Positions 231 through 60,590 of a stretch of 64,000 nucleotides of DNA are shown piece by piece. The translations under genes were made by a program, and so were the position numbers. Source of the stretch: Clostridia bacterium (GTDB taxonomy: Bacteria > Bacillota > Clostridia > Oscillospirales > Acutalibacteraceae); NCBI GenBank assembly GCA_017474125.1, contig JAFVIF010000076.1:9739-73738 (forward strand), given 5' to 3'. How positions within the stretch are numbered: position 1 is the stretch's first letter; each line of letters starts with the position of its first letter. The notes beneath the pieces were generated by a model, which searched no databases, had not been told where the DNA came from, and worked only from the letters and a program-made list of their open reading frames with translations.

Positions 231-1097
231 ATGAATAATACAGCCATTGCCCTTGGCACCTTCGACGGTGTACATTTAGGGCACGTTGCCGTGTTGCGCG
301 CCGCCGCCGAAAGCGGTTTTGAATCGGTTGCCGTTGCTTTCAGAGTTCCTCCAAAGTCTTTTTTTACTACCGACGGAATTATTCTTACCCTTGAAAAGGA
401 AAAAACCCGCCTTATAAAGGAAACGGGCATTAAAAAAATTGATTATATTGACTTTCCCTTGGTAAAGGACGTTTCTCCAAATGATTTTTTTGATTCCTTA
501 GTAGATAAATACTCCCCTGCATTTATAGCTTGCGGCTATGATTATACCTTTGGTAAGGGTGGCAAGGGCGACACAAAGCTACTTGAAGCCTTGTGCTGTG
601 AAAAAGGAATTAAACTAACGGTTATAGACAAGGTTACCCTTGACGGCGAGCCGATTTCAAGCAGTAGAATACGCACACTTTTAAAGAACGGTGACGTAAA
701 AAAAGCCGCCTCCCTTTTGAAAAGAGATTTTTCCGTTGTCTCCGAAGTGCTTCACGGGGACGAGCGCGGCAGAACAATAGGCTTTCCCACCTTTAACCAG
801 CTTTATCCGAAAAACGTTGCCTTAGTAAAATTCGGCGTTTATATGACCAAGGCGGTAATTGACGGTAAAGAATATTTTGGTATGACAAATATTGGTATTC
901 GCCCCACCTTTCCCTTAAATTCTCCCCTTTGCGAAACCAATCTTTTCGACTTCACAGGTGATTTGTACGGAAAAGCCATAAGGCTTTATCTTTTAGATTT
1001 TATAAGAGAAGAAAAGCGTTTTAATTCTGTCAGTGAATTAAAGGAAGCGCTGATAAGGGATAAAAATACAATACTTGAAAAACAAAAAAATCGGTGA
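231..1097 (+). CDS. ribF: Bifunctional riboflavin kinase / FMN adenylyltransferase
   Basis: The N-terminus GTFDGVHLGHVAVL is the nucleotidyltransferase motif. The C-terminal GDERGRTIGFPTFN...GMTNIGIRPTF is the riboflavin kinase signature. A GGAGG RBS lies upstream. Confidence 0.9.
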   Translation: MNNTAIALGTFDGVHLGHVAVLRAAAESGFESVAVAFRVPPKSFFTTDGIILTLEKEKTRLIKETGIKKIDYIDFPLVKDVSPNDFFDSLVDKYSPAFIACGYDYTFGKGGKGDTKLLEALCCEKGIKLTVIDKVTLDGEPISSSRIRTLLKNGDVKKAASLLKRDFSVVSEVLHGDERGRTIGFPTFNQLYPKNVALVKFGVYMTKAVIDGKEYFGMTNIGIRPTFPLNSPLCETNLFDFTGDLYGKAIRLYLLDFIREEKRFNSVSELKEALIRDKNTILEKQKNR

Positions 1098-5777: not shown

Positions 5778-7547
5778 TTGAAAAAAAGGATTTTTTCAAT
5801 TATTACAGCCGCTTTAATAATTGTTACAATGCTTGTTACCTCTTTGCCTGTTAACGCTTGGGTGCAATGGCTAAAGCCCAGTGACCTGAAGGGCAGTGAC
5901 TTTACCGACGTACCCGCCTTTGCCGCCGCTCTTGACGACGTTTTCGCAGGCGACGTTGATTTATTCACAAGCTCTTCCTTTACCAAGGAGGTTTCCCTTC
6001 CCTTAGGAAGCCGAATGAGTATGAACAACGCTTATCATATGAGAAGTGTAACCCGTAACGTAAAAACCTACGGCTGGACATGTTTTATTTATTCTAACGG
6101 TGCCTTTAACCGTCTTTTCGGTGAATACGTACACCGCGGCACCGGTCTTAAAAACTGTTACATAGCCGTTGGCAAGGGTGCTTCCAAAATGACCTATGAT
6201 CTGCTTGCAAATGCCAACATTAAAACCGGCGCCTATATCCGTACCTCGCCAAAATCCGACGGCTCCTACTACGGAAACGACGGACACTCTATGATTATTT
6301 TGGCCTATGATGAAAAGTATATTACCTACCTTGAGGGTAACGGTGACGGCAAGGGCTTAGTAAGAGTAACCAAGCGTACCTACTCCGAATTCAACTCGGC
6401 TCAGCTTACCGGCAGAGGCAGAAAAATCACACATATTGTTCAACCCACCGACGAATGGTTTAACGAGCTTTACGGCAACAGTCCCGAGGAAAACACCTAC
6501 ACCGTTTCCTACGACGCTAACGGCGGTTTTGGTAATATGGACTCCTGTACCGTACCCTATAACGGCGAAATTTCCCTTGCTTCAAATGGATTTGACCGCA
6601 ACGGCCACATTCTTTCGGGCTGGGCGCTTAAGCGCGATTACGACAACGCTTGGCTCACCGAGAACGGTTGGGTTAAGGAGGAAAGCCTTGGAGAGCTTTC
6701 TCCCACCACCTTTGCCACCGACGGTACAATTCCCCTTGATGCTTCCCTTATTAAGGACACCTACGGCAACGTAGCCTTTACCGCTTACGCCGTTTGGGCT
6801 GATTCTCCAAGACTGGAGCTTGCTTCGGTAACCGTTATTGACGACAGCTTTAAACGGGAATTTTATCCCATTGGCTCTCAAGGCTCTTTAAGCGGCGCAC
6901 AGCTTGAATTTACCTTTACCACCGGCGATAAGGTAAGGGTTACGGTTAATGACAGCTGTAACAACACGCTGCCACAAAGCTTCCGCCTTAAGGGCAACGA
7001 CTACAGCTTTTATATTGACAGCGATATAAAGGCAGAGGGCGACAACCCCTGCTACGTAAGAATAGAAAACTTTAAGGCTACTGTTATAAGCCTTTACGGC
7101 GGTAAATCCGTTAAGTCGGCTCGTATAGTATCCTCCCCTTCTGTTTCAACGGGAGAAAATGCCGAGGTTGAATTAACCTATTCCGACGGCACCACAGAAA
7201 CCATTGTCGCAACCGAATTTATTCCTAACGAAAGCCAAAGCGAGGCAATCGGAGGACTTATGAAAACCAACGGCGGCTTTGCAATAAGCTGGACCTACAG
7301 TGCAAAGGTAACCGATGACACAGTAACGGTAACCTTCCCCTGCGGCTTTACGAAAACGGCAGAAAACGGCGACTTTAATATGGACGGTCATTTCGACACT
7401 ACCGACCTCGCTTCCATTAAGCTGTTGCTTTCCTTCCTTAACGACGACCAGTATAACGCCTACTGTGCCGCCGACTTTAACGGTGACGGCGAGCTTTCTA
7501 CCGTTGACCTTGCAGCCTTAAAGCTTACCCTTGCAGGCGTTTATTAA
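5778..7547 (+). CDS. Secreted papain-like (Cys/His) hydrolase-domain protein with a Listeria-Bacteroides repeat and a C-terminal type I dockerin
   Basis: TTG start with a TAGGGAG RBS and a signal peptide (MKKRIFSIITAALIIVTMLVTSLPVNA). Candidate catalytic Cys (GWTCFIYS) and His (DGHSMIILAY). Flg_new-type repeat YTVSYDANGGFGNM...GHILSGWA. Dockerin Ca-loops DFNMDGHFDTTD and DFNGDGELSTVD. Confidence 0.8.
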   Translation: MKKRIFSIITAALIIVTMLVTSLPVNAWVQWLKPSDLKGSDFTDVPAFAAALDDVFAGDVDLFTSSSFTKEVSLPLGSRMSMNNAYHMRSVTRNVKTYGWTCFIYSNGAFNRLFGEYVHRGTGLKNCYIAVGKGASKMTYDLLANANIKTGAYIRTSPKSDGSYYGNDGHSMIILAYDEKYITYLEGNGDGKGLVRVTKRTYSEFNSAQLTGRGRKITHIVQPTDEWFNELYGNSPEENTYTVSYDANGGFGNMDSCTVPYNGEISLASNGFDRNGHILSGWALKRDYDNAWLTENGWVKEESLGELSPTTFATDGTIPLDASLIKDTYGNVAFTAYAVWADSPRLELASVTVIDDSFKREFYPIGSQGSLSGAQLEFTFTTGDKVRVTVNDSCNNTLPQSFRLKGNDYSFYIDSDIKAEGDNPCYVRIENFKATVISLYGGKSVKSARIVSSPSVSTGENAEVELTYSDGTTETIVATEFIPNESQSEAIGGLMKTNGGFAISWTYSAKVTDDTVTVTFPCGFTKTAENGDFNMDGHFDTTDLASIKLLLSFLNDDQYNAYCAADFNGDGELSTVDLAALKLTLAGVY

Positions 7548-7598: not shown

Positions 7599-7669
7599 GC
7601 ATTTTTAAAAGTGTTTTAAGTTTGTAACCGCTCGTTACCAAATAGTAACCGAATGAAACAAAATCGTAA

Positions 7670-7698
7670 CTTGACAAATTATTTTGGATGTGCTATAA
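7670..7698 (+). promoter_or_regulatory. Sigma-A promoter for the NlpC/P60-dockerin gene
   Basis: TTGACA, 17-nt spacer, TGcTATAAT (consensus -35 and extended -10). Confidence 0.65.
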
Positions 7699-7781
7699 TA
7701 TGTGCACGGCTGTGTACACCTTTCAGCCATAAAACGTTTTTTCGCGCTTTAATGCGCCTTATATTCGGAGGTTTAATTATG

Positions 7782-9026
7782 AAAAAGCTACTCTCTGTAG
7801 CGTTGGCGGTCTTATTGATAATCGGTATAATGCCTATTATTTCTACCGAGGTTTACGCTGCCGACTACAGAATTGAACAGGCTATTGAATGGGCAACCAA
7901 AATAGCCAACGACGATACCCACGGATACAGTATGTCAAGCCGTCACGGCCCCAATTACGACTGCTCCTCCCTTGTGAGCTATGCCTTTAAAAATGCAGGC
8001 TTCGCCATTAAGGGCGTTCCCAACAGCAGCAGTATGATTTCCGCATTCTCCAAGGTAGGCTTTAAGGCCTACAAAACGGGTACGGTAACCCCCCGACGCG
8101 GTGACATTTACGTTCAGCCCGGCAGTCACGTTGAGCTTTACATAGGCAACGACACCTGTATCGGCGCCCACGAAAACACCGACGGCAAAAGCGGTGACTC
8201 CAAGGGCAACGAAATTGATATCAGAAACATTAGCAAATGCTCTTGGTGCAGAAACAAAAAGTACACCTACATATTACGTTATGAGGGTCCCGAAACCTAC
8301 ACCTATTCCTTTGCCTATAACACCCTTGAAAACCAGAATTATATTAACGGGTTTGAAGCTCTTTTAAGCAAGGACTTTACCGTTGACTGTAGTGTAGAGC
8401 GCGAAGGCTACACCCTTTCGGGTTGGACGGTACAGCGCAAGCGTGACAACAAATGGCACACCGAAAACGGCTGGAGTACCGAGGAAGAAATTTTCACAAG
8501 CGAAGGTGCAAAAACCGTTTTCACTAACGGCACCACCCTTACCTTCAGCGAGGAATGGACCTCCTCCTACAGCTGTGATACTCAGTTTGTATTTTACGCC
8601 GTATGGACTCCACATACCTACGAGGTAGCCTTTGATGCATGCGGCGGAAATAACGCTCCTGCACCTCAAATTAAGCTTCACGGCAGCGATATGACGGTTA
8701 CCACCGTTATCCCCACCAAATTTGCAACCCAATTTTTAGGCTGGGCCGAAACCCCGAATGCTACCGTTCCCACCTATTTACCCGGCGCCGCATATTACAC
8801 CAATGCTCCCGCCACCCTTTATGCAGTATGGGGTGAATCTAAGGGCGATATATATGCCGACGGAAAATTAGACACCTCAGACTTTGCATTATTTAAAATT
8901 ATGCTTTCAGGTGTTGCTTCTATAACTGCTGATGAGGAAAGAATTGCCGACGTTAACTTCGACGGCGTTTTCAATACTACCGATATGGCGATTATGAAGC
9001 TTATGCTTGCAGGCATTAACCCTTAA
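7782..9026 (+). CDS. Secreted NlpC/P60-family cell-wall hydrolase with a Listeria-Bacteroides repeat and a C-terminal type I dockerin
   Basis: Start moved to ATG 7782 (GGAGG RBS; signal peptide MKKLLSVALAVLLIIGIMPIISTEVYA). NlpC/P60 signature NYDCSSLVSYAF...GDIYVQPGSHVELYIG. Repeat GYTLSGWT. Dockerin loops DIYADGKLDTSD and DVNFDGVFNTTD. Confidence 0.85.
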   Translation, partial: KKLLSVALAVLLIIGIMPIISTEVYAADYRIEQAIEWATKIANDDTHGYSMSSRHGPNYDCSSLVSYAFKNAGFAIKGVPNSSSMISAFSKVGFKAYKTGTVTPRRGDIYVQPGSHVELYIGNDTCIGAHENTDGKSGDSKGNEIDIRNISKCSWCRNKKYTYILRYEGPETYTYSFAYNTLENQNYINGFEALLSKDFTVDCSVEREGYTLSGWTVQRKRDNKWHTENGWSTEEEIFTSEGAKTVFTNGTTLTFSEEWTSSYSCDTQFVFYAVWTPHTYEVAFDACGGNNAPAPQIKLHGSDMTVTTVIPTKFATQFLGWAETPNATVPTYLPGAAYYTNAPATLYAVWGESKGDIYADGKLDTSDFALFKIMLSGVASITADEERIADVNFDGVFNTTDMAIMKLMLAGINP

Positions 9027-49228: not shown

Positions 49229-49996
49229 ATGGATTTCACGAATAAAACAGCAATATCAACAGGCGCCGCAAGCGGTATGGGACTTCTTTTTGCGCAAAAT
49301 TTCGCCGACCTTTACGGAAACGTAGTTATGTGCGACATAAATGAAGAAGTGCTTAACGAAAAGGTTAAAGAAATTAACGCAAAGGGTAAAGGAAAAGCCG
49401 TTGGCGTAGTTTGTGACGTGCGTGATTATAATCAGGTTTGCGCCGCAAGAGATAAAGCTGTAACCGAATTCGGCAGTATTGACGTTATGGCAAACTTTGC
49501 AGGCGGATATGCGCTCAGAATGCTGAAGGTTGATACACAGCAGTATCCCGAATTTCCCGACGTGCCCATTGAGGTTTTCGATTGGGGACTTGACGTAAAC
49601 CTAAAGGGTCCCTTCTATTTTGCTCACGCTGTACTCAGCCAAATGAGAGAGCAGAAAAGCGGACTCATTATAAATATAGGTTCAATTTCAGGCGCCGAGG
49701 GCAGCTCGTTTGGAATGGAATACCCCACCGCCAAAGCGGGACTTATGTACGGACTTACAAAGTCTATTGCACAGTACGGCTCAAAGCACGGAATAAGATG
49801 TGTTTGTGTTTCCCCCGGACCTGTGCTCACCCGTGAAGCTATGGCGAATATGAAAACCCTTATGGGCAGAGCCGCCGAGCCGCAGGAAATAATTGATTTA
49901 TGCTTATTCATAGCATCTGATAAAGGACAGTTTATTAACGGCGAAAACATTATGATTGACGGCGGACGAAACGCCGCACCGCGCTGGTGCCGATAA
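49229..49996 (+). CDS. SDR family oxidoreductase
   Basis: TGAASGMG cofactor motif, a catalytic Y-x-x-x-K (YPTAKAG), and a PGPV motif. Confidence 0.85.
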   Translation: MDFTNKTAISTGAASGMGLLFAQNFADLYGNVVMCDINEEVLNEKVKEINAKGKGKAVGVVCDVRDYNQVCAARDKAVTEFGSIDVMANFAGGYALRMLKVDTQQYPEFPDVPIEVFDWGLDVNLKGPFYFAHAVLSQMREQKSGLIINIGSISGAEGSSFGMEYPTAKAGLMYGLTKSIAQYGSKHGIRCVCVSPGPVLTREAMANMKTLMGRAAEPQEIIDLCLFIASDKGQFINGENIMIDGGRNAAPRWCR

Positions 49997-50112
49997 AAGT
50001 GCGTTGTTCTTATCGGAGAAAATAGAATTCTTTTAAATTCAGCTAAGAACCGGCAAGTGCATTTGTAAGTACAAATGCATTTGGGCAGTAGCCCAAACCC
50101 ACTAACAACAGA

Positions 50113-50154
50113 AAAGAGAAGATTCGTATCATAACGAGTCTTCTCTTTCTTTTT
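50113..50154 (+). terminator. Intrinsic terminator, 117 nt downstream of the SDR gene
   Basis: AAAGAGAAGA ... TCTTCTCTTT followed by CTTTTTG. Confidence 0.7.
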
Positions 50155-50163
50155 GTCTGATAA

Positions 50164-50360
50164 GTGATATGCTGACTAAAGTCAGCGTGATATTTTCGCT
50201 TTGCGAAAGTGATATGAAACCTATCGGTTTCGTGATATTCTATTCGCCCATAAACTTGCGAAGCAAATATCACTCGGCGTAAGCCGAATAACACTGCGTT
50301 GCAATATAACTCGCCGTCAGGCGAATAGAGTTGCGTGATACTCTTAACGGAGTATCACGC
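50164..50360. repeat. Heptamer-punctuated mini-hairpin array, copy B
   Basis: GTGATAT at 50164, 50187, 50209 and 50232 (spacing 22-23 nt). Each is followed by a different perfect hairpin (GCTGAC-taaa-GTCAGC, TTTCGC-ttt-GCGAAA, GAAACC-tatc-GGTTTC). Further right come ATATCAC (50267), ATAACAC (50288) and ATATAAC (50304). The element ends in an 11-bp hairpin, GCGTGATACTC/GAGTATCACGC. Confidence 0.7.
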
Positions 50361-50382
50361 CAAGCCGGCAAGGGGTTTTTCT

Positions 50383-51960
50383 TTAGCCGAGAGACTGTTT
50401 TTTGCTTGTAACAACCTCGTGGTCGTAGCATTCAAATTTTTCATCAACCTTTTCGGGGAGAGTTTTCTGAGTCAGCAAGCTGACAATGGGGACTAAAATT
50501 AAACCGCCCACCATTGCGAATACACCCGAATAAAGGGAATTTGTAAATATAAAGCTGATTACGGGTATGCCTGCAGCCTTTATCCAGCCAAGGCTTACAC
50601 AAAGCTGAATTATTTCAAGACCTACGCCGAAAATAAAGCTTGCGGCAACCGCGGCCTTGGTAGTCTTTTTCCAGTAAAGACCGTACATAAAGGGGGCGAG
50701 GAAGGCGCCTGCAAGGGCACCCCACGAAACACCCATCATTTGAGCAATAAACATATTGTTCGACCAAACAGAATCCTTAAGAATGGCGATAATTGCGGAA
50801 ACGGCGATAAAGAATACTATAAAGAGTCGCATAATAAGTACGCTTCTTTTTTCGCTGATTTCCTTTTTTAAGCTCGGCTTTACAACATCAAGGGTAATGG
50901 TAGAAGCGGAGGTAAGCACGAGGGAGGAAAGAGTAGACATTGATGCCGACAGCACAAGCACTATAACGAGAGCAACGATAACGGGAGCTAATTCGCCGAG
51001 CATGGTAGGAACAACCTTATCGAAAAGGACCTTGCCGCCGTTTATAAAGCCGCTTGATACCATTTTATCTTCATATAAACGACCGAAGCCGCCGAGGAAA
51101 TAGCAACCGCCTGCAACTATAATAGCAAACAGGGTGGAAATTACGGTGCCCTTTTTAATGGAGGCCTCATCCTTTATAGAGTAGAACTTACCTACCATTT
51201 GAGGCAGTCCCCAGGTACCGAGCGAGGTAAGCATTACGACAAAGAAAAGGAATACGGGGTTGGGGCCGAACATAGCGGTATACTGCGTTCCTGCGCTAAC
51301 TCCCAAGGCTTCAACTGCGGCGTTAAAGCCGCCGTTTTCCATTAATACAGAGGCAATAACGGCAATGATACCCACAAGCATTATAACGCCCTGAATAAAA
51401 TCGTTAACGGCGGTAGCCATATAGCCGCCGAAAATTACGTAGATACCCGTAAGGATTGACATAACCACAACTATTACCCAGTAATCAACGGCAAAAACGT
51501 TATTGAAGAGAGAGGATAGTCCGTTATAGAGGGATGCGGTATAGGGAATGAGGAATATGAAGGTTATAAAGGAAGCCACTACCTTTAAGGTTTTGGAATC
51601 AAAACGCTTTTCAAAAAAGTCGGGCATTGTTTTACTGCCTAAGTGCTGTGTCATAACTCTTGTTCTTCTGCCCAGCACGCTCCAAGCAAGCAAGGAGCCG
51701 ATAAAGGCGTTACCTAAGCCAATCCAGGTGGAGGCAAGACCGAAGTTCCAGCCGAACTGCCCTGCATAGCCTACGAAGATAACAGCCGAAAAATAAGAGG
51801 TGCCGAAGGCGAAGGCGGTAAGCCACGGGCCTACGTTTCTGCCGCCCAGCACAAAGCCGTCAACACTTACCGCATTCCTTCTGCAATAAAATCCAACCCC
51901 TATCATAAGGCCGAAAAAGCAGAGTAGCAACGGTATTGTAATAATTACTGTAGTTGTCAT
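50383..51960 (-). CDS. Sodium:solute symporter (SSS) family transporter
   Basis: 525 aa with about 13 TM helices and an SSS-like pattern (GGRNVGPWLTAFAFGTSYFSA...). GAAAGGG RBS. Confidence 0.8.
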   Translation of the reverse strand: MTTTVIITIPLLLCFFGLMIGVGFYCRRNAVSVDGFVLGGRNVGPWLTAFAFGTSYFSAVIFVGYAGQFGWNFGLASTWIGLGNAFIGSLLAWSVLGRRTRVMTQHLGSKTMPDFFEKRFDSKTLKVVASFITFIFLIPYTASLYNGLSSLFNNVFAVDYWVIVVVMSILTGIYVIFGGYMATAVNDFIQGVIMLVGIIAVIASVLMENGGFNAAVEALGVSAGTQYTAMFGPNPVFLFFVVMLTSLGTWGLPQMVGKFYSIKDEASIKKGTVISTLFAIIVAGGCYFLGGFGRLYEDKMVSSGFINGGKVLFDKVVPTMLGELAPVIVALVIVLVLSASMSTLSSLVLTSASTITLDVVKPSLKKEISEKRSVLIMRLFIVFFIAVSAIIAILKDSVWSNNMFIAQMMGVSWGALAGAFLAPFMYGLYWKKTTKAAVAASFIFGVGLEIIQLCVSLGWIKAAGIPVISFIFTNSLYSGVFAMVGGLILVPIVSLLTQKTLPEKVDEKFECYDHEVVTSKKQSLG

Positions 51961-52013
51961 AAAACCAACCCTTTCACATTTTAGTGGTTTAAAGCGTTAA
52001 ACTGTATGAATAC

Positions 52014-52042
52014 ACTTTAGCACTTTAAAGCGTGTTTGTCAA
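52014..52042 (-). promoter_or_regulatory. Sigma-A promoter for the symporter gene (mirror copy)
   Basis: Minus strand: TTGACA aacaCGCTTTAAAGTGC TAAAGT (17-nt spacer). Confidence 0.6.
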
Positions 52043-52080
52043 CACCTTTTTTTAATTTTTTTCCAAAAAGCCGATTTTTG

Positions 52081-52109
52081 TTGACATTTTCGCTTTAAAG
52101 TGCTAAAGT
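52081..52109 (+). promoter_or_regulatory. Sigma-A promoter for the acyl-CoA synthetase-iorAB operon (mirror copy)
   Basis: TTGACA ttttCGCTTTAAAGTGC TAAAGT (17-nt spacer). The spacer core and -10 are the same as in the divergent promoter. Confidence 0.6.
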
Positions 52110-52147
52110 ATTATTGGTAGATTTTTATCATTTTGAGGTTGTTTATT

Positions 52148-53782
52148 ATGACTATTGTTCACCTACTTGAAAAAAACGCAAAGGAATTTGCAAACGACAC
52201 CGCGTTGGTGGAGATTAATCCCGACCAGCCCGAAACCCGTAAGCTTACATGGCACGAGTACGAGCTTGTTCAGCCCACCAACAAAAAGCACTACAGGAGA
52301 GAAATCACCTGGCAGGTGTTTGACGAAAAAGCAAACCGCCTTGCAAATATGCTTGCTCATAACGGTATAGGCAAGGGCAAAAAGGTTGCCATTCTTTTAA
52401 TGAACTGTATTGATTGGCTTCCTATTTATTTTGGTATATTAAAGACGGGCGCTCTTGCAGTTCCCCTTAACTTCCGCTATTCGTCGGATGAAATTGACTA
52501 CTGTCTTGACTTGGCCGAAGCCGACGTGCTTATTTTCGGTAACGAGTTCGTAGGCCGTGTTGAAGCGGTAGCCGAAAAAATCAGCAAAAAATGCACCCTT
52601 ATATATTTAGGAGGAAGCTGTCCCGATTTTGCCGACGACTACAATGACCTTATCAGCGAGTTTTCGGGTATTTTCCCCGAATGTACCTTGACTGAGGAGG
52701 ACGACGCCGCCATTTATTTTTCTTCGGGTACCACGGGCTTCCCCAAGGCTATTTTACATAAGCACAGAAGCCTTATTCACTCCTGCCGAGTTGAACAGGC
52801 GCACCACGGCCAAACCAAGGACGATTGCTTTTTGTGTATTCCTCCCCTGTATCATACGGGAGCAAAAATGCACTGGTTCGGCAGTCTCTTAGTAGGCGGT
52901 AAGGCTGTTATTTTAAAGGGCACCGCTTCAAAGAGTATTCTTGAAGCCGCAAGCAGTGAAAAATGCTCTATAGTATGGCTGCTTGTTCCTTGGGCTCAGG
53001 ATATTTTAAACGCTATTGAGCGCGGAGAAATCGACCTTAAGGATTATGATTTATCCAATTGGCGCCTTATGCATATAGGCGCACAGCCCGTTCCTCAAAG
53101 CCTTATCAAGCGTTGGCTGGAGGTTTTCCCCAACCACGATTACGACACAAACTACGGTCTTAGCGAATCTATAGGACCGGGCGCCGTCCACTTGGGTATT
53201 GAAAACGTTCACAAGGTTGGCGCTATCGGTATACCCGGCTACGGCTGGGAGGTTAAAATAGTAGACCCGAATGGCAACACCGTTAATAAGGGAGACGTTG
53301 GTGAGCTTTGCCTTAAGGGCCCCGGTGTTATGACCTGCTACTACAGAGACGAAAAGGCTACTGCCGACTCCCTTAAAGACGGTTGGCTTTACACAGGCGA
53401 TATGGCTATGCAGGACCCTGACGGCTTTATTTACCTTGTTGACCGTAAGAAGGACGTTATTATTACGGGCGGCGAAAACCTTTACCCCGTACAAATTGAA
53501 AACTTCCTGTCTGCTCACGAAAAAATCAAGGATGTCGCCGTTATCGGTCTTCCCGACACCCGACTTGGCGAAATTGCTACCGCTATTATCGAGCTTAAAA
53601 AGGGTATGACCTGCACCGAGGAGGAAATTAATCAGTTCTGCCTTGACCTTCCCCGCTACAAGCGTCCCCGTAAAATTATTTTTGCCGACGTTCCTCGTAA
53701 TCCAACGGGTAAAATCGAAAAGCCCAAGCTTCGTAAAATTTACGGTGCCGAGGGTCTTGTTGCTTCTCAGAACAAATCGTAA
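52148..53782 (+). CDS. AMP-dependent acyl-CoA synthetase/ligase (class I adenylate-forming enzyme)
   Basis: AMP-binding motif IYFSSGTTGFPKAI, then YHTGA, GDMA...DGF.YLVDRKKD and PRNPTGKI. ATG 52148 has a TGAGGT RBS. Confidence 0.85.
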   Translation: MTIVHLLEKNAKEFANDTALVEINPDQPETRKLTWHEYELVQPTNKKHYRREITWQVFDEKANRLANMLAHNGIGKGKKVAILLMNCIDWLPIYFGILKTGALAVPLNFRYSSDEIDYCLDLAEADVLIFGNEFVGRVEAVAEKISKKCTLIYLGGSCPDFADDYNDLISEFSGIFPECTLTEEDDAAIYFSSGTTGFPKAILHKHRSLIHSCRVEQAHHGQTKDDCFLCIPPLYHTGAKMHWFGSLLVGGKAVILKGTASKSILEAASSEKCSIVWLLVPWAQDILNAIERGEIDLKDYDLSNWRLMHIGAQPVPQSLIKRWLEVFPNHDYDTNYGLSESIGPGAVHLGIENVHKVGAIGIPGYGWEVKIVDPNGNTVNKGDVGELCLKGPGVMTCYYRDEKATADSLKDGWLYTGDMAMQDPDGFIYLVDRKKDVIITGGENLYPVQIENFLSAHEKIKDVAVIGLPDTRLGEIATAIIELKKGMTCTEEEINQFCLDLPRYKRPRKIIFADVPRNPTGKIEKPKLRKIYGAEGLVASQNKS

Positions 53783-53800
53783 GGAAAGGAATTTATACAT

Positions 53801-55525
53801 ATGAAAAAGCTTATGATAGGTAATGCCGCAGTTGCCGCAGGTCTTCACGACGGCGGACTTGGCGTAGTTTCCAGCTACCCCGGCACACCCTCTACCGAAA
53901 TTACCGAATTTTTATCTAAATACGACGATTTACATTCCGAATGGGCGCCTAACGAAAAGGTTGCCTGCGAGGTTGCCTTTGGCGCAAGCCTTGCAGGTGC
54001 CCGAAGCGCCTGCGCTATGAAGCACGTTGGCTTAAACGTAGCTGCCGACCCCCTTTTCACCCTTTCCTATACGGGTGTTAACGGCGGTATGGTTATTTGC
54101 GTTGCCGACGACCCTGCTATGCATTCCTCGCAAAACGAGCAGGACTCCCGCCATTACGCTATTGCTTCCAAGGTTCCTATGCTGGAGCCCAGCGATTCCC
54201 AAGAAGCCTACGATTTTGCAAAAACAGCCTTTGAGCTTTCGGAAAAATTCGACACCCCCGTACTGCTTCGTATGTGCACCCGTATTGCACACAGTCAGTC
54301 GGTGGTAGAGGCAGGCGAGGCCGTTCCCGCCGTTTTAAAGGATTATACGAAAAATCCTCAAAAGTATATTATGATGCCCGGTAACGCAATTCGCCGCCAC
54401 CCCTTCGTTGAGCAAAGAACCGCCGATTTGGCTGAATTTGCCAACGACTGTATGTATAATAAGGTAGAAATGAACAGTAGCGAAATAGGTATTATCACCT
54501 CGGGCTGCTCCTACCTTTACGTTAAAGAGGTTATGGGAGACTCGGCCAGCATACTTAAAATCGGTATGCCCAATCCCCTGCCCGACAAATTAATAAAGGA
54601 ATTTGCAAAAAAGGTTAAAAAGCTTTACGTTATTGAAGAGCTTGACCCCGTTATTGAAAGTCACGTTAAGGCTTTGGGCATTGACTGTATCGGCAAGGAG
54701 TTGTTTTCCCTTTTGGGCGAATTTTCTCAGGGCACTATTGCAAAGGCCTTCGGCAAGGAGGACAAATACAGCGTAACCGCCGACAGCGTTATTCCTCCCC
54801 GTCCTCCCATGATGTGTGCAGGCTGTCCTCACAGAGGTATGTTCTACACCCTTTCCAAAAATAAAATTACCGTTATGGGTGATATCGGCTGTTACACTCT
54901 TGGCGCCGTTGCCCCCCTTAACGCACTTGATTCTACCCTTTGTATGGGTGCCTCGGTTTCGGGTCTTCACGGCTTTAACGCCGCAAGAGGCAATGAGACC
55001 GAAAAGAAGAGCGTTGCCGTTATCGGTGACTCTACCTTTATGCATTCGGGTATGACGGGACTTGTAAACATTGCCTATAACGCTACCAATTCCACCGTTA
55101 TTATCCTTGATAACTCCATTACGGGTATGACGGGACATCAGCAAAACCCCACCACAGGCTATAACATTAAGGGTGACCCTGCCGCGAAGGTTGATTTGGA
55201 AGCACTTTGCAAGGCTCTCGGTATTAACCGAGTAAGGGTTGTCGACCCCTACGATTTAAAGGCCTGCGAAACCGCCGTTAAGGAGGAGCTGGCGATAGAC
55301 GAGCCGTCGGTAATTATTTCAAGACGTCCCTGCGTATTACTTAAAACCGTTAAGCACGCTCCCTCGCTAAAGGTTGAAAGCGACAAGTGCAGGTCCTGCA
55401 AGCGCTGTATGGGTCTCGGCTGTCCCGCTATTAGTCTTAAGGACGGAAAAGCAAAAATCGACAATACACTTTGCGTTGGCTGTGGCGTATGCAAACAGCT
55501 TTGCGCATTTGACGCTATAGTTTAA
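53801..55525 (+). CDS. iorA: Indolepyruvate:ferredoxin oxidoreductase, alpha subunit
   Basis: N-terminal GNAAVAAGL..GG..VVSSYPGTPSTEI, a TPP motif region (GDSTFMHSGMTG), and two C-terminal 4Fe-4S motifs (CRSCKRCMGLGCP, CVGCGVCKQLC). Confidence 0.85.
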   Translation: MKKLMIGNAAVAAGLHDGGLGVVSSYPGTPSTEITEFLSKYDDLHSEWAPNEKVACEVAFGASLAGARSACAMKHVGLNVAADPLFTLSYTGVNGGMVICVADDPAMHSSQNEQDSRHYAIASKVPMLEPSDSQEAYDFAKTAFELSEKFDTPVLLRMCTRIAHSQSVVEAGEAVPAVLKDYTKNPQKYIMMPGNAIRRHPFVEQRTADLAEFANDCMYNKVEMNSSEIGIITSGCSYLYVKEVMGDSASILKIGMPNPLPDKLIKEFAKKVKKLYVIEELDPVIESHVKALGIDCIGKELFSLLGEFSQGTIAKAFGKEDKYSVTADSVIPPRPPMMCAGCPHRGMFYTLSKNKITVMGDIGCYTLGAVAPLNALDSTLCMGASVSGLHGFNAARGNETEKKSVAVIGDSTFMHSGMTGLVNIAYNATNSTVIILDNSITGMTGHQQNPTTGYNIKGDPAAKVDLEALCKALGINRVRVVDPYDLKACETAVKEELAIDEPSVIISRRPCVLLKTVKHAPSLKVESDKCRSCKRCMGLGCPAISLKDGKAKIDNTLCVGCGVCKQLCAFDAIV

Positions 55526-55538
55526 GGAGGAAGCAGTA

Positions 55539-56108
55539 ATGACAAAAAGTGTTATGATAGTAGGCGTAGGCGGACAGGGCAGTCTCCTTGCCTCCAAATT
55601 ACTCGGCCGACTTCTTATGGACGAGGGCTTTGACGTTAAGGTTAGCGAGGTACACGGTATGAGCCAGCGCGGCGGCAGCGTTGTTACCTACGTGCGCTAC
55701 GGCGAGCAGGTTTATTCACCCATTATTACCGAGGGTGAAGCCGATATTATTATATCCTTTGAAAAGCTGGAGGCCGCGCGCTATGCCGCCTTCCTTAAAA
55801 AGGATGGAAAAATTGTGGTTAATACCCAGCAAATTGACCCTATGCCCGTTATTATCGGCGCTGCTGAGTACCCCGAAAAGGTGCTTAACGAATTAACCGA
55901 TAAGGGTTGCTGTGTTGAAGCCTTAGACGCACTGAGTCTTGCCGAAAAGGCAGGCAGCAGTAAGGCGGTAAACATTGTGCTTATGGGCAAGGCCGCAAAG
56001 TATTTCCATATTCCTTACGACAAATGGATTGCGGCTATTGAAAATACCGTTGCTCCAAAATTTGTGGAAATGAACAAAATAGCTTTCGATTTAGGCTATA
56101 ACGCATAA
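55539..56108 (+). CDS. iorB: Indolepyruvate:ferredoxin oxidoreductase, beta subunit
   Basis: IVGVGGQGSLLASKLLG...HGMSQRGGSV is the gamma-type subunit signature. The gene directly follows iorA. Confidence 0.85.
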   Translation: MTKSVMIVGVGGQGSLLASKLLGRLLMDEGFDVKVSEVHGMSQRGGSVVTYVRYGEQVYSPIITEGEADIIISFEKLEAARYAAFLKKDGKIVVNTQQIDPMPVIIGAAEYPEKVLNELTDKGCCVEALDALSLAEKAGSSKAVNIVLMGKAAKYFHIPYDKWIAAIENTVAPKFVEMNKIAFDLGYNA

Positions 56109-56138
56109 GCCCGAAAAATCAACTTTTTTATAAAAGTG

Positions 56139-56167
56139 TTGACAATTAAATTTTACCGTGTTAAAAT
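56139..56167 (+). promoter_or_regulatory. Sigma-A promoter of the T-box leader
   Basis: TTGACA, 17-nt spacer, TGtTAAAAT (extended -10). Confidence 0.7.
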
Positions 56168-56203
56168 ATTTCTTGTCTTAAAGACGTTTTAAATGCGATG
56201 ATC

Positions 56204-56470
56204 AGAAAGTAGTAAATTCGGAAAAGCTTTTAAGAGAGTTGTCGTTCGGTGCGAGACAATAGGCAAGTACGTTTTGAATTCATTCTGTTAGCAGTGCACT
56301 GAACTAAGCTTTGCTTAAAGTAGGCTGCAACGGGTGTTCCCGTAACAGAACTAAGGTATGTTAGTACCTGAAAAGGCCGTTACCGTGAGATAACGGCGAA
56401 CTGAGGTGGTACCACGGGATTTCGATTTTCTCGTCCTCTGTATTCTTATCGGAATGCAGAGGATTTTTTT
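56204..56470 (+). promoter_or_regulatory. T-box riboswitch leader with a UUC (Phe) specifier, controlling paaK-ACT
   Basis: Stem I spans 56204-56293 (TGC-GATGAT-CAGAA-AGTAG ... GAA-TTC-A-TTCTG-TTA-GCA). AGAGAG box and GGTGCGAGAC distal loop are present. T-box sequence AACTGAGGTGGTACCACGGG lies at 56399-56418. A terminator stem at 56435-56462 is followed by T7. Confidence 0.85.
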
Positions 56471-56526
56471 ATTTCCTTTCATTCCGCGGTTTGTACCAAA
56501 CAAAATAAACAGAAAGGATGATTACA

Positions 56527-57834
56527 ATGGCACAAAACTACTATCAAAAAGAAATCGAAACCATGCCGGTTGAGGAAATTAAAAAGCTTCAATCGGAAAA
56601 ACTGAAAAAGCAGGTAAAGCACGTATATGAAAACGTTGCCTATTACCGCGATTTAATGGACAAAAAAGGCGTTAAACCCGAAGATATCAACGGTATTGAG
56701 GATTTACATAAGCTCCCCTTTTTATCCAAGGCAGATTTAAGAGAAGCTTACCCCTACGGTCTTCTTGCAAAGCCCCTTAAGGACTGTGTACGTATCCACT
56801 CTACCTCGGGTACTACAGGTAAGCGCGTAGTTGCTTTTTATACTCAGAACGACGTTGATTTATGGGAGGATTGCTGTGCGCGAGCTATCGTTGCCGCAGG
56901 CGGCACCAACGAGGACGTTTGTCAGGTTGCTTACGGCTACGGCCTCTTTACAGGCGGCGCAGGTCTTCACGGCGGCTCACACAAGGTAGGCTGTCTTACC
57001 CTTCCTATGTCTTCAGGCTTTACCGAAAGACAAATTCAGTTTATGAATGACCTTTCCGCTACAATTCTTTGCTGTACTCCCTCTTATGCCGCATATATTG
57101 CCGAATCCTTAAAGGAAATGGGCTACACTCCCGACCAAATTCCCCTTAAAGCAGGTATTTTCGGCGCCGAGCCCTGGACAGAAGAAATGAGACGCGGTAT
57201 TGAAAAAGATTTAGGCATTAAGGCTTACGATATTTACGGTCTTACCGAAACCAGCGGCCCCGGTGTAGCTTTTGAATGCTGTGAGCAAACGGGTATGCAC
57301 GTTAACGAGGACCACTTCCTTGCCGAAATTATCGACCCCGATACGGGCGAGGTTCTTCCCGAGGGCGAAAAGGGTGAGCTTGTATTCACCGCTTTAGATA
57401 AGGAAGCCTTCCCCCTGCTCCGCTACAGAACACGTGATATTTGCGTTCTTTCACGCAAAAAATGCTCCTGCGGCAGAACTCTCATTAAAATGGCTAAGCC
57501 TATGGGCAGAACCGACGATATGCTGATTATCCGCGGCGTAAACGTCTTCCCCAGCCAAATCGAAACCGTTCTTTTAAACGATGGCTATCAGCCTAACTAT
57601 CAGATTATCGTTGACAGAGTAGGCAACAACGACACCTTCGACATTAACGTTGAAATGAATCCCGAGCAGTTTACCGACACCGTTAGCGGTATTACCGCTC
57701 TTGAAAAGGCTCTTGCAAACTCTATGAAGGTTATGCTCGGCATTAACCCTGCAGTTCATCTTGTTCCGCCCAAGTCAATTACCCGAAGCGAGGGCAAGGC
57801 TGTGCGCGTAATTGATAAGCGCAAGCTTCATTAA
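56527..57834 (+). CDS. paaK: Phenylacetate--CoA ligase
   Basis: HSTSGTTGKRVV, IFGAEPW, YGLTETSGPGVAFEC and RTDDMLIIRGVNVFPSQIE are PaaK-type adenylate-forming motifs. ATG 56527 is preferred over 56518 on RBS spacing. Confidence 0.85.
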   Translation: MAQNYYQKEIETMPVEEIKKLQSEKLKKQVKHVYENVAYYRDLMDKKGVKPEDINGIEDLHKLPFLSKADLREAYPYGLLAKPLKDCVRIHSTSGTTGKRVVAFYTQNDVDLWEDCCARAIVAAGGTNEDVCQVAYGYGLFTGGAGLHGGSHKVGCLTLPMSSGFTERQIQFMNDLSATILCCTPSYAAYIAESLKEMGYTPDQIPLKAGIFGAEPWTEEMRRGIEKDLGIKAYDIYGLTETSGPGVAFECCEQTGMHVNEDHFLAEIIDPDTGEVLPEGEKGELVFTALDKEAFPLLRYRTRDICVLSRKKCSCGRTLIKMAKPMGRTDDMLIIRGVNVFPSQIETVLLNDGYQPNYQIIVDRVGNNDTFDINVEMNPEQFTDTVSGITALEKALANSMKVMLGINPAVHLVPPKSITRSEGKAVRVIDKRKLH

Positions 57835-57849
57835 GAAAGGAGAATAGCT

Positions 57850-58281
57850 ATGTCTTTAAAACAACTTACCGTTTTCGTTCAGAATCATCAGGGCTCTCTC
57901 GTTGCAATTACCGATACTCTTGCAAAGCATAACGTGAACATTCGCGCTCTTTCTATTGCCGACACCGAGGATTTCGGTATTCTGCGCCTTATCGTTAACG
58001 ATACAGCCCTTGCAGGCAAAACCCTTGCCGAGGAAGGCTATCTCCTTAAAACCACCGACGTTGTGGGTGTTAAAATCGGTGATGCCCCCGGAAAGCTCTC
58101 CGAAGCCTTAAAGGTTTTAGACGAAAACCATATTAATATGGAATACCTTTACGCCTTTATGACCAGAACCGAAAAGCACGCATATATGGTTATGCGCGTT
58201 GCCGATAACCAAAAGGCCGAAGCCGCTCTTACAGGCGCAGGCTTCCATATTATTACCGACAGCGACGTAGAAAAGCTGTAA
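57850..58281 (+). CDS. ACT domain-containing protein
   Basis: 143 aa with tandem ACT-like beta-alpha-beta-beta-alpha-beta segments (LTVFVQNHQGSLVAITDTLAKHNVNIRALS). Small ACT proteins commonly follow paaK in anaerobes. Confidence 0.75.
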   Translation: MSLKQLTVFVQNHQGSLVAITDTLAKHNVNIRALSIADTEDFGILRLIVNDTALAGKTLAEEGYLLKTTDVVGVKIGDAPGKLSEALKVLDENHINMEYLYAFMTRTEKHAYMVMRVADNQKAEAALTGAGFHIITDSDVEKL

Positions 58282-58295
58282 ATTTTAAAACAAAC

Positions 58296-58333
58296 AAAAA
58301 GCGAAGGCAGTTTATTAACAGCCTTCGCTTTTT
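58296..58333 (+). terminator. Intrinsic terminator
   Basis: AAAAAGCGAAGGC ... GCCTTCGCTTTTT. Confidence 0.8.
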
Positions 58334-58444
58334 ATTATGCTAACGCCTACGGGTGATGACAAACCGAAAAGTGCCGAAAGAATGCCGTTTTAGGCAGGTT
58401 AGGATTATTCGTGTTTGCTTACGGTATGATGTAGGCATCATACC

Positions 58445-58759
58445 CTACGATTTATTTGAATTAAGGGCGCGTATCATTTGTAATACTACCTGCTTTTGTT
58501 CGGTTGTCAAATTCACCCAAGAATTAAAAAGCTCTTTAATTTCAGGTGTCATTTCAATCATATCCCCCTGTGCAAAAAACTGAGATATGGTAATACCAAA
58601 GCCCTTACAAATTGCTTCAAGCGTGCTTATAGACGGCAAGGTATTTCTTTTGAAAATATTTGCAATGGTTGACTCCGACAATCCGCATTCCTTAGACAAA
58701 CGGTATTCAGTCCATCCACGTTCATCCAATAATTGCCTAAGTCTTTGATGTGTGTCCAT
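58445..58759 (-). CDS. XRE family helix-turn-helix transcriptional regulator
   Basis: RLRQLLDERGWTEYRLSKECGLSESTIANIFKRNTLPSISTLEAICKGFGITISQFF is an HTH_3 domain. Confidence 0.8.
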   Translation of the reverse strand: MDTHQRLRQLLDERGWTEYRLSKECGLSESTIANIFKRNTLPSISTLEAICKGFGITISQFFAQGDMIEMTPEIKELFNSWVNLTTEQKQVVLQMIRALNSNKS

Positions 58760-58908
58760 AATCTCACCCTTTCACATCTGTATTTTACCGCTAAATTTAA
58801 CGGTTTTATACACAATACTTGTAATGTTTTTACCGTTATGTTAAACTGTAATGTATATTCAGGTTGAAAGGTAGCGGTGCTTAATGCTTAAATAACAAAG
58901 AATATTAT

Positions 58909-59121
58909 TTGAAATACTACGACGAAATTACCCTTTCCGAAAGAGCAGCCCTTTCCCACCCCAAGGCCGCCTTAGAGGAACGTAACCGCGAAATGGTAGA
59001 CAGGGCAGATTTAATTATCTGCTACGTTAACCGTGAATTCGGCGGTGCCTACAAAGCAATGAAGTACGCAGAAAAGCGCCAAAAGCCAATTATCAATTTG
59101 GCAAAGGATATTTGCTCATAG
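58909..59121 (+). pseudogene. C-terminal remnant of a SLOG/DUF1273-family protein
   Basis: The 70-aa ORF has a TTG start and no RBS. ...RNREMVDRADLIICYVNREFGGAYKAMKYAEKRQKPIINL matches only the C-terminal third of ~180-aa DUF1273 proteins. Confidence 0.4.
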
Positions 59122-59234
59122 CTTTTATACCGAAATAAACCTTTTCCGTAATTTTACAAACGCAGTAGTTATTTATTGCATTTTCTTAAAAAATGTGCAA
59201 TAATAAGGTATATTCTTTGAAAGGTTTGAGACAA

Positions 59235-60590
59235 ATGAGTGAAAAACGCAGTAATTTCTCCAGTAAAATCGGCTTTGTTCTTGCCACCGCCGGTTCTGCT
59301 GTAGGTCTTGGTAACATTTGGCGCTTCCCCTACCTTGCGGCAAAGCACGGCGGCGGTATGTTCCTTCTTGTTTACCTTATTTTAGTATTAACCTTCGGCT
59401 TTGCTTTAGCGGCCGCCGAAATTCTTATCGGTAGAAAAACAGGCCAAAGCGCCATCAATGCCTTTGGAGCGCTTAGCAAAAAATGGTCCTTTATCGGTTG
59501 GCTTGCGGCCCTTGTACCCGTTATTATCCTTCCCTATTATTCTGTAATAGGCGGCTGGATTTTTAAGTATCTTGTTGCCTTTATCGGCGGTCAGGCAAAT
59601 GCCGCCGCAGGAGACGATTACTTCACAGGCTTTATCGGTAAGGTTGGCGAGCCTATCGGTTGGTTTATGCTCTTTATCGGCATAACTGCCTTAATCGTTC
59701 TTTTCGGTGTTGAAAAGGGCGTTGAAAAGGCAAGTAAAATAATGATGCCCATTCTTGTTGTCATTACTATTTTTATTGCTATATACTCGGCGTGTATGCC
59801 GGGCGCTTTTGAGGGTGTGCTTTACTACATAACACCCAACTTTGAGCACTTCTCGGTTACCACCGTACTTGCCGCTTTGGGTCAGCTTTTCTACTCAATG
59901 AGCCTTGCAATGGGTATTATGATTACCTACGGCTCCTATATGAAAAAGGACGTTAACGTTTCCTCCTCAATTCATCAGGTTGAAATTTTCGATACAGGCA
60001 TTGCTTTCCTTGCGGGTCTTATGATTGTGCCCGCCGTATTCTCTTTCTCGGGCGGTAGCGAGGAAGCCTTAGGCAAGGGTCCCTCTCTTATGTTTATTAC
60101 TCTGCCCAAGGTATTCCAAAGTATGCCCGGCGGTACTGTTATAGGTATTATTTTCTTCCTTATGGTGCTTTTTGCCGCACTTACCTCCTCCATTTCCCTT
60201 ATGGAAACGGTTGTTTCGGTAATTCAGGATAAGTTTAAGCTTAACCGTAAAATCACCTGCCTTATAGTATTTATCGGATGTGTTGCTTTAGGTCTGCCGT
60301 CATCTCTCGGCAACGGCGCTTGGGCAGGTGTTAAGATTTTAGGCTTCGCCTTCCTCGACTTCTTCGACTTCATAAGCAACAGCGTGCTTATGCCAATAGT
60401 CGCTCTGCTCACCTGCATTTTCGTTGGCTACGTTATTAAACCCAAATCGCTTATTGAGGAAGCTGAGCTTTCTGCGCAGTTTAAAGCCAAAACGCTTTTC
60501 AGTGTAATTATCCGTTACGTTGCCCCCGTTTTAATCGTTCTTATCCTCGGCTTCTCGGTACTCGAAGCCTTCGGTATAGTAAAGGTTTAA
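59235..60590 (+). CDS. Neurotransmitter:sodium symporter (NSS/SNF) family transporter
   Basis: GFVLATAGSAVGLGNIWRFPYLAAKHGGG is the NSS signature. The start is ATG 59235; ATG 59193 cannot be excluded. Confidence 0.85.
   Translation: MSEKRSNFSSKIGFVLATAGSAVGLGNIWRFPYLAAKHGGGMFLLVYLILVLTFGFALAAAEILIGRKTGQSAINAFGALSKKWSFIGWLAALVPVIILPYYSVIGGWIFKYLVAFIGGQANAAAGDDYFTGFIGKVGEPIGWFMLFIGITALIVLFGVEKGVEKASKIMMPILVVITIFIAIYSACMPGAFEGVLYYITPNFEHFSVTTVLAALGQLFYSMSLAMGIMITYGSYMKKDVNVSSSIHQVEIFDTGIAFLAGLMIVPAVFSFSGGSEEALGKGPSLMFITLPKVFQSMPGGTVIGIIFFLMVLFAALTSSISLMETVVSVIQDKFKLNRKITCLIVFIGCVALGLPSSLGNGAWAGVKILGFAFLDFFDFISNSVLMPIVALLTCIFVGYVIKPKSLIEEAELSAQFKAKTLFSVIIRYVAPVLIVLILGFSVLEAFGIVKV

Follow-up and report, generated by a model that had tools for sequence, protein, structure and literature searches.

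T-box leaders turn on genes that restore the supply of charged tRNA (PMC7778990; PMC2494555), and in class-I T-boxes uncharged tRNA stabilises the antiterminator (PMC7778990). Here we describe a T-box with a phenylalanine (Phe) specifier that precedes paaK, a gene encoding a PaaK-family phenylacetate-coenzyme A (CoA) ligase, in a 64,000-nucleotide stretch of DNA (the window) from a Clostridia bacterium of the Acutalibacteraceae (assembly GCA_017474125.1, contig JAFVIF010000076.1, positions 9,739-73,738 of the forward strand). The closest described systems are the Phe T-boxes of pheS and pheST, and other class-I T-boxes (Rfam family RF00230). They share with the paaK leader a Stem I with K-turn, S-turn, specifier, AG bulge and distal loop, then Stem II, IIA/B and Stem III, and an antiterminator and terminator with a UGGN bulge. 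The UUC specifier is shared as well, as is the presumed ligand, uncharged tRNA-Phe. However, the genes regulated in the window are those for an aryl-acetate-CoA ligase and an ACT-domain protein, rather than a tRNA synthetase, a shikimate or prephenate enzyme, or an amino acid transporter. Both the RNA, which belongs to a well-known family, and its attenuation mechanism are ordinary; the novelty lies in the regulated gene and its implication.

T-boxes that act on amino acid salvage have also been described in the Bacillus cereus group, where one is found on phenylalanine-4-hydroxylase, and Phe, Trp and Leu T-boxes are found on transporters of the sodium:neurotransmitter symporter family (NSS), with none on a CoA ligase (Wels et al. 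2008, PMC2494555). As we propose for the present locus, those T-boxes control salvage or interconversion and uptake rather than de novo synthesis, and there too T-boxes were duplicated and their specifiers then changed between Tyr and Phe (PMC2494555). However, the B. cereus genes concern amino acid hydroxylation and NSS transport, whereas those described here concern the CoA activation of aryl acids and a sodium:solute symporter (SSF family), and the bacteria are different ones.

The chemistry that we propose runs from an aryl-acetate to the aryl-acetyl-CoA, then by indolepyruvate/arylpyruvate:ferredoxin oxidoreductase (IOR) to the aryl-pyruvate and on to the amino acid, and it is the same as that put forward for Methanococcus maripaludis and for rumen anaerobes (PMC4162585; PMC7356843). 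In M. maripaludis it was shown genetically that aryl acids feed the aromatic amino acids through IOR (Porat 2004, as cited in PMC4162585), and in rumen anaerobes the formation of Phe from phenylacetate was shown by labelling (Allison 1965, as cited in PMC7356843). As they are cited there, these studies deal with flux, and in the archaeon with the IOR genes as well, and not with control by tRNA sensing; in the present locus it is the regulation that is read from the sequence, and the flux that is proposed.

In Bacteroides, an AMP-forming ligase beside IOR has been confirmed as an arylacetate-CoA ligase, and the energetics of the ligase were held to argue for a probable biosynthetic role, as in methanogens (Jiang et al. 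2026, PMC13285125). This system resembles the present one in that a homologous ligase (the family of Protein Data Bank (PDB) entry 4R1L) is co-located with IOR, a biosynthetic role is suggested, and a homologue of the ACT protein exists (2F06). However, no T-box is described there, and hence no amino-acid-starvation signal. Aerobic paa operons use the same enzyme family for the same first reaction. Their inducer is the substrate or its CoA ester and their outcome is degradation of the ring, whereas the signal here would be a shortage of the product amino acid. In the aerobic operons, PaaK is under the control of repressors of the PaaX/PaaR type. A search of the open-access literature, outside which lie the surveys of Vitreschak 2008 and Gutierrez-Preciado 2009, TBDB and RegPrecise, found no paper tying a T-box to paaK or phenylacetate-CoA ligase, to phenylacetate metabolism or to IOR. 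The open-access literature likewise yielded no paper connecting ACT domains with PaaK.

The paaK leader matches the RF00230 covariance model from its first to its last position (1-219 of 219), and its 119.9 bits exceed the gathering score of 93. The E-value was 5.8e-26 in a scan of the whole window and 8.6e-27 in a second scan of the region, and this is the single T-box that Rfam finds within the 64 kb. The element is a complete class-I transcriptional T-box (Table 1). An earlier note on this DNA, made from the letters alone, had described such a leader before paaK and the ACT gene and had suggested the RF00230 scan. Its placement holds, all the elements that it listed were recovered where it put them or no more than a few bases away, and the match covers the full model above the gathering score.

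Table 1. Features of the paaK locus, its neighbours in the window and T-boxes in related loci. Positions with an L number refer to the sequence of that related locus; all others are positions in the window.
Feature	Position	Strand	Basis and remarks
Promoter of the T-box unit, sigma-70 type	56139-56167	+	-35 TTGACA 56139-56144, 17-nucleotide spacer, -10 TAAAAT 56162-56167, TG extended -10; 11 of 12 matches, best in region
T-box leader (Stem I, Stem II, IIA/B, Stem III, antiterminator)	56189-56441	+	Rfam RF00230
Stem I	56194-56293	+	covariance-model alignment; basal pairs compensated, e.g. AU to GC in 8 and 12 sequences (RNAalifold)
GAUGA at the base of Stem I	56197-56201	+	covariance-model alignment
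S-turn, 5' half, AGUAGUA	56208-56214	+	covariance-model alignment
AG bulge AGAGAG	56233-56238	+	aligns to the AGAGA motif of the model
Distal loop GGUGCGAGAC	56248-56257	+	aligns to the GGUG..A motif of the model
Specifier loop, 3' side	56276-56282	+	covariance-model alignment; GAA (S-turn), UUC 56279-56281, then A
Stem III	56376-56397	+	RNAalifold, alignment columns 206-228; compensatory changes in 6 of 8 pairs
T-box sequence AACUGAGGUGGUACCACGGG	56399-56418	+	UGGU bulge 56407-56410, predicted partner of the tRNA 3' ACCA
Antiterminator helix, GAGG/CCUC and ACGGGA/UCUCGU	56403-56438	+	-10.1 kcal/mol folded alone
Intrinsic terminator	56433-56470	+	14-pair stem 56433-56464, U7 56464-56470; -20.4 kcal/mol; conserved in the 68-sequence alignment
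paaK, PaaK-family AMP-forming aryl-acetate/phenylacetate-CoA ligase, 435 amino acids	56527-57834	+	ribosome-binding site 56511-56518; Pfam AMP-binding, AMP-binding_C_2
ACT-domain-pair protein, 143 amino acids	57850-58281	+	Pfam ACT_8 79, ACT 46.4, ACT_AHAS_ss 45.3 bits
Hairpin AGCGAAGGC...GCCUUCGCU and U-run	58300-58335	+	read from sequence
Sodium:solute symporter (SSF family)	50383-51960	-	Pfam/NCBIfam; divergent from the ligase-iorAB operon
Second AMP-forming acyl-CoA ligase, 549 amino acids	52133-53782	+	Pfam/NCBIfam; first gene of the ligase-iorA-iorB operon
iorA	53801-55525	+	TIGR03336 731.8 bits (cutoff 650.9); Pfam
iorB	55539-56108	+	NF005325 270.6 bits (cutoff 230); Pfam
SSF-linked T-box, UAC	L007 3666-3913
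SSF-linked T-box, UAC	L052 3687-3932
SSF-linked T-box, UUC	L015 4135-4389
SSF-linked T-box, UUC	L043 4183-4417
Leu T-box before leuA	L015 7874-8116
Leu T-box before leuA	L019 7841-8081
Leu T-box before leuA	L032 7891-8140
Leu T-box before leuA	L051 1890-2132	-

Related loci were collected in a scan at one genome per species, which returned at least 588, and the best 80 were retained, with PaaK proteins 86-93% identical to that of the window. They come mainly from metagenome-assembled genomes labelled Acutalibacteraceae, Oscillospiraceae or Clostridia, and ruminant hindgut sample names are frequent. Among the matches listed, protein searches with PaaK and with the ACT protein recovered only close relatives (at least 89% and at least 80% identity, respectively). 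Sixty-eight T-box leader sequences were aligned and stem covariation was judged with RNAalifold. Compensatory double changes are found in 23 of the 51 predicted pairs, including the helix that closes the specifier loop, and in 10 sequences a GC pair in the upper helix of the antiterminator is replaced by AU in compensation. The AG bulge and distal loop, which form the predicted platform for the tRNA elbow, are near-invariant, and GGUGGUACC of the T-box sequence is identical in all 68.

UUC stands at the specifier position in all 70 related leaders, and the three nucleotides (U91, U92 and C93 of the alignment) are invariant in the 68 aligned sequences despite a mean column identity of 74%. The UUC that the earlier note had read in this loop was thus recovered at its exact position, both by the frame of the alignment and by its invariance, and the structural alignment assigned no other codon. 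It is very improbable that the codon is read in another frame, as AUU (Ile) or as UCA or UCC (Ser), with a different tRNA being sensed. The base following UUC is A or C across the relatives, UCA and UCC are both Ser codons, and TBDB also weighs the -1 and +1 frames (PMC7778990). However, if the loop is counted back from its 3' end, UUC takes positions 2-4, immediately past the GAA of the S-turn, and this is the canonical frame (rule from PMC7778990). Sister T-boxes in front of symporter genes carry UAC (Tyr) in this frame, against ACA or AUA in the alternatives, and since UAC lies at the same three positions it fixes the reading frame. In bacterial tRNA-Phe and tRNA-Tyr the discriminator base is A73, which suits the UGGU bulge, whereas in bacterial tRNA-Ser it is G73. 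The alternative frames were dropped on the basis of the loop geometry, the UAC sister T-boxes and this bulge, and comparison of the leaders supports a T-box specific for the Phe codon UUC.

The leader ends in two structures that share one strand. In the antiterminator, GAGG pairs with CCUC around a seven-nucleotide bulge, UGGUACC, while the 5' arm of the terminator overlaps the 3' arm of the antiterminator and uses the same CCUC. The two structures are mutually exclusive because CCUC is common to both. The terminator had been described earlier as 12 bp followed by U7; the U7 is as described, and the stem is longer, with 14 pairs when G-U and outer pairs are counted. The distance from the U-run to the start of paaK is 57 nucleotides. 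No terminator lies between iorB and the promoter of the T-box, so transcription arriving from upstream would also be halted at the T-box terminator. Of the 67 related leaders having enough upstream sequence, 64 are preceded by a promoter that scores 9 or more of 12 matches, and 51 have the TG.

These features bear on whether the leader still works. A decaying relic, acting as a constitutive terminator only or having no function at all, could account for the clean deletion of the element in eight relatives and for the 5' half of the leader in one locus (L048), which looks degenerate. We consider a relic highly improbable, as the Rfam score is well over the gathering score, the functional motifs are invariant in the 68 sequences (74% mean column identity) with compensated stems, and the dedicated promoter is conserved.

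The gene downstream of the leader was assigned using Pfam and NCBIfam cutoffs, with structural homologues taken from PDB matches. PaaK contains the PaaK-type C-terminal domain (AMP-binding_C_2, 101 bits). It matches PaaK1 of Burkholderia (2Y27) with an E-value of 7e-126 over query residues 9-433, so that the match is full-length, as is that to 2Y4O (E = 3.9e-122), and it also matches a Bacteroides phenylacetate-CoA ligase (4R1L) over its full length (E = 1.3e-120). From these matches we infer that the substrate of PaaK is phenylacetate. The ATG at 56518 that had been taken as the start of paaK is less likely than the ATG at 56527, which lies eight bases past an AGGA ending at 56518; public gene calls for an identical metagenomic sequence also give a PaaK of 435 amino acids.

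The ACT gene follows paaK in 77 of the 80 related loci. It belongs to the paaK transcription unit, though it lies beyond the interval that the earlier note had covered, and the hairpin downstream of it is the probable end of the paaK-ACT transcript. The ACT protein also matches 2F06, an unannotated Bacteroides structure (E = 9.5e-23).

The T-box lies immediately upstream of paaK in 68 of the 80 loci. In two others (L015 and L043) it is found one gene further upstream, at the head of a symporter-paaK-ACT operon, which brings the number with a T-box controlling paaK to 70. The genes flanking the T-box, paaK and ACT vary widely between relatives, which points to a conserved autonomous module made up of promoter, Phe T-box, paaK and ACT. 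No conserved neighbour other than iorAB and the SSF gene (an aminotransferase gene, for example) is evident in the 80 loci, the neighbours being too variable.

Considering the specifier, the architecture of the leader and the identity of the regulated gene, we propose that the element is a canonical tRNA-Phe(GAA) T-box gating paaK and ACT, and that PaaK feeds Phe synthesis from phenylacetate. We place the probability of this reading at about 0.7. Transcription would begin at the promoter of the unit, and by default the terminator would stop RNA polymerase before paaK. When Phe is scarce, the anticodon of uncharged tRNA-Phe would pair with UUC and the elbow of the tRNA would dock on distal Stem I. 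The 3' ACCA of the tRNA would then pair with UGGU and stabilise the antiterminator, allowing read-through into paaK and ACT; charged tRNA could not do this. PaaK would convert phenylacetate, which is abundant in the gut, to phenylacetyl-CoA with expenditure of ATP. IorAB would carboxylate phenylacetyl-CoA to phenylpyruvate using reduced ferredoxin, and an aminotransferase would convert phenylpyruvate to Phe. The ACT-pair protein may be an amino-acid-binding partner that adds feedback at the level of the enzyme, a guess made from its domain family. What the sequences show is the RNA element with its specifier, promoter and terminator, the family to which each gene belongs, and the conserved arrangement; that tRNA binds, that Phe starvation induces the unit, that IorAB runs reductively and what the ACT protein does are inferred.

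By the logic of T-box control, paaK and ACT should be genes that raise the supply of Phe, and the only known chemistry that would fit a raised supply is the route through phenylacetate, IOR and an aminotransferase. AMP-forming ligases favour synthesis of the CoA ester. A division of labour is conceivable in which IOR serves all three aromatic series and the entry ligase is substrate-specific; this would explain why the T-box is found on the ligase only.

The IOR of the window is encoded just upstream of the T-box promoter. IorA and IorB both score above the NCBIfam equivalog cutoffs for indolepyruvate/arylpyruvate:ferredoxin oxidoreductase, so the adjacent IorAB-type enzyme of the earlier note is borne out at equivalog level. 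However, its genes precede the T-box and are not controlled by it. They form, with a second AMP-forming ligase, a separate unit with its own promoter (52081-52109).

Several observations weigh against the proposal that the T-box and PaaK serve Phe synthesis from phenylacetate. The ligase-iorAB operon adjoins the paaK unit in only 21 of the 80 loci. PaaK scores 534.9 bits against the TIGR02155 equivalog, under its cutoff of 646.3, so phenylacetate is not established as its preferred substrate over other aryl acids. UUC is usually expected to be followed by a purine, but in about 40% of the relatives the next base is C. The window has no tRNA gene, and no tRNA-Phe gene was found in the three related loci that were scanned for tRNAs (L003, L019 and L052). 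Eight close relatives (L003, L005, L013, L014, L018, L024, L027 and L028) have no T-box. In these, paaK lies 20-60 nucleotides after iorB in one operon, and the whole segment of about 390 nucleotides with promoter and T-box is absent. One of them (L028) is T-box-less although its gene order is otherwise the same as that of the window. A further locus (L062) has a plain promoter and no T-box, and the sequence of another (L079) begins too near paaK to judge. Across these loci, T-box control of paaK appears frequent but dispensable.

The score below the TIGR02155 cutoff and the separation of iorAB from paaK in most related loci would both be expected if the Phe T-box is real and the ligase acts on another acid, such as 3-phenylpropionate, phenyllactate, 4-hydroxyphenylacetate or indoleacetate, or if phenylacetyl-CoA has a fate other than Phe. 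Related IOR-linked ligases are known to take phenylacetate, 4-hydroxyphenylacetate and indoleacetate (PMC13285125). We regard this explanation as unlikely, though it is the most probable of the alternatives considered here. Two phenylacetate-CoA ligases of known structure match PaaK from end to end, and control by a Phe T-box is meaningful only where the product adds to the Phe supply. Phenylacetate is the sole aryl-acetate from which carboxylation followed by transamination yields Phe.

The opposite direction of flow also has to be weighed. Classically, the catabolism of phenylacetate starts with PaaK, and the module could be catabolic or detoxifying, with PaaK removing phenylacetate and the T-box either linked to it incidentally or sparing Phe from degradation. 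Known paa operons, however, are induced by their substrate and not by starvation for a product. In amino-acid fermenters IOR works oxidatively, but the last enzyme of an oxidative route would be a kinase that yields ATP or a ligase of the ADP-forming type, not of the AMP-forming type (PMC13285125). Among the annotated genes of the window (the open reading frames (ORFs) between approximately 22 and 41.5 kb lie outside the annotation, and negatives on gene content refer to annotated ORFs) we saw none for attack on the ring of the Paa or benzoyl-CoA type. A T-box with an invariant UUC has been kept in 70 species. In view of this evidence a catabolic role is quite improbable, and the supply of Phe remains the preferred reading.

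Additional T-boxes near some of the related paaK genes connect the module with aromatic amino acids. A paralogue of the SSF symporter, approximately 42-43% identical to that of the window, is found in or beside the T-box-paaK unit in six loci (L007, L015, L043, L051, L052 and L078). Where the symporter is the first gene of the operon headed by the Phe T-box (L015 and L043, UUC), its co-transcription with paaK strengthens the reading that the unit supplies Phe. In L007 and L052, the symporter is under a T-box of its own that reads UAC (Tyr), one base from UUC, with the UGGU bulge kept. The Tyr leaders are 64-69% identical to the Phe leaders of paaK, compared with 42-50% to nearby Leu leaders of leuA, and the Phe leader of L043 is nearer to the Tyr leaders (64-65% identity) than to those of paaK (59-60%). 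This pattern suggests that the specifier was switched by one base inside a single T-box lineage. The presence of a Tyr T-box on the same symporter indicates that the module belongs to the supply of aromatic amino acids.

The Leu T-boxes just mentioned were considered as a possible control of isovalerate-to-leucine carboxylation near paaK and ACT. They sit right beside the module, downstream of paaK and ACT in L015, L019 and L032 and on the minus strand in L051. The idea was rejected, as they carry CUC or CUG (Leu) and precede leuA (HMGL-like and LeuA_dimer domains), which makes them ordinary and unrelated. In L019, the only annotated locus of the four, leuA is followed by a gene for a fusion protein of 819 amino acids that combines a xylose-isomerase-like TIM barrel with an AMP-binding ligase. 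A glycine riboswitch is found in L032 at 3825-3916.

The SSF symporter of the window is a candidate aryl-acid permease. It is divergent from the ligase-iorAB operon, and a permissive Rfam scan of 49900-59300 found no credible riboswitch or T-box before either of them, or before the gene of the NSS-type (SNF) transporter downstream. The order of the second ligase and iorAB is retained in 20 related loci. Both divergent promoters (52013-52033 and 52091-52109) contain the same element of approximately 20 nucleotides between -35 and -10, in the form of ACTTTAGCACTTTAAAGCG and its mirror CGCTTTAAAGTGCTAAAGT. Inside it is the palindrome CTTTAAAG, of which the whole window has just three copies. Seven relatives (L001, L005, L012, L018, L027, L028 and L069) have CGCTTTAAAGTGYTAAAGT in the equivalent promoter, and the T-box-less paaK promoter of L062 carries a similar CGCTTTAGTGTGATATCAT. 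The element probably serves as an operator for a regulator of the symporter and the ligase-iorAB operon.

A broader arrangement can be sketched from these parts, although we hold it only tentatively and consider it rather doubtful. Members of the Oscillospirales from gut and rumen may possess a modular system that salvages aryl acids for aromatic amino acids, in which the tRNA of each product governs the substrate-specific entry step, and reductive carboxylation of phenylacetate from the surrounding community, not the shikimate pathway, would be a main regulated source of Phe. A Phe T-box would control the phenylacetate ligase, and Phe or Tyr T-boxes one base apart (UUC or UAC) the linked SSF aryl-acid permease. 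The shared IorAB and the second ligase would be controlled separately through the promoter-embedded operator CGCTTTAAAGTGYTAAAGT, and the ACT pair would act as a Phe-sensing allosteric brake on PaaK.

Other elements were observed around the cluster. The stretch that separates an SDR gene from the 3' end of the symporter gene holds two convergent copies of the Gut-1 RNA (RF01706), at 50162-50243 (+) and 50262-50333 (-); one scores 51.7 bits (gathering score 50), and the convergent copy, with 45.5 bits, is just below the threshold. A further copy is found in L013 at 255-325 (-), with 57.2 bits, about 240 nucleotides upstream of the ligase-iorAB operon. Downstream of the ACT gene, the stretch 58445-59120 separates it from the NSS transporter gene (59193-60590), which adjoins the cluster and has no RNA element that we could find upstream. 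The stretch contains an Xre-type helix-turn-helix gene (58445-58759, -) and a short ORF fragment that by eye resembles the C-terminal part of a YpsA/SLOG-type protein, for which it is a candidate. It looks like a small insertion, because the transporter gene directly follows ACT in L012 and L028. Elsewhere in the window, two secreted proteins (5778-7547 and 7653-9026) have dockerin type I domains, and one of them also has NlpC/P60 and amidase domains; these indicate a Firmicute that builds a cellulosome or amylosome.

The specifier of a T-box ranks with the most reliable computational clues to which amino acid a gene serves. Going by UUC, a PaaK-family ligase and its ACT partner, which annotation pipelines file under phenylacetate degradation, would have an anabolic role and supply Phe. 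The proposal predicts that paaK is induced by limitation for Phe and not by phenylacetate. If it is correct, it provides a genetic and regulatory handle on the route from phenylacetate to Phe, which has been known since the 1960s from rumen anaerobes. The finding supports the recent proposal that the AMP-forming ligases linked to IOR in gut bacteria are biosynthetic. Models of the gut pools of phenylacetate, the precursor of host phenylacetylglutamine, would be affected as well.

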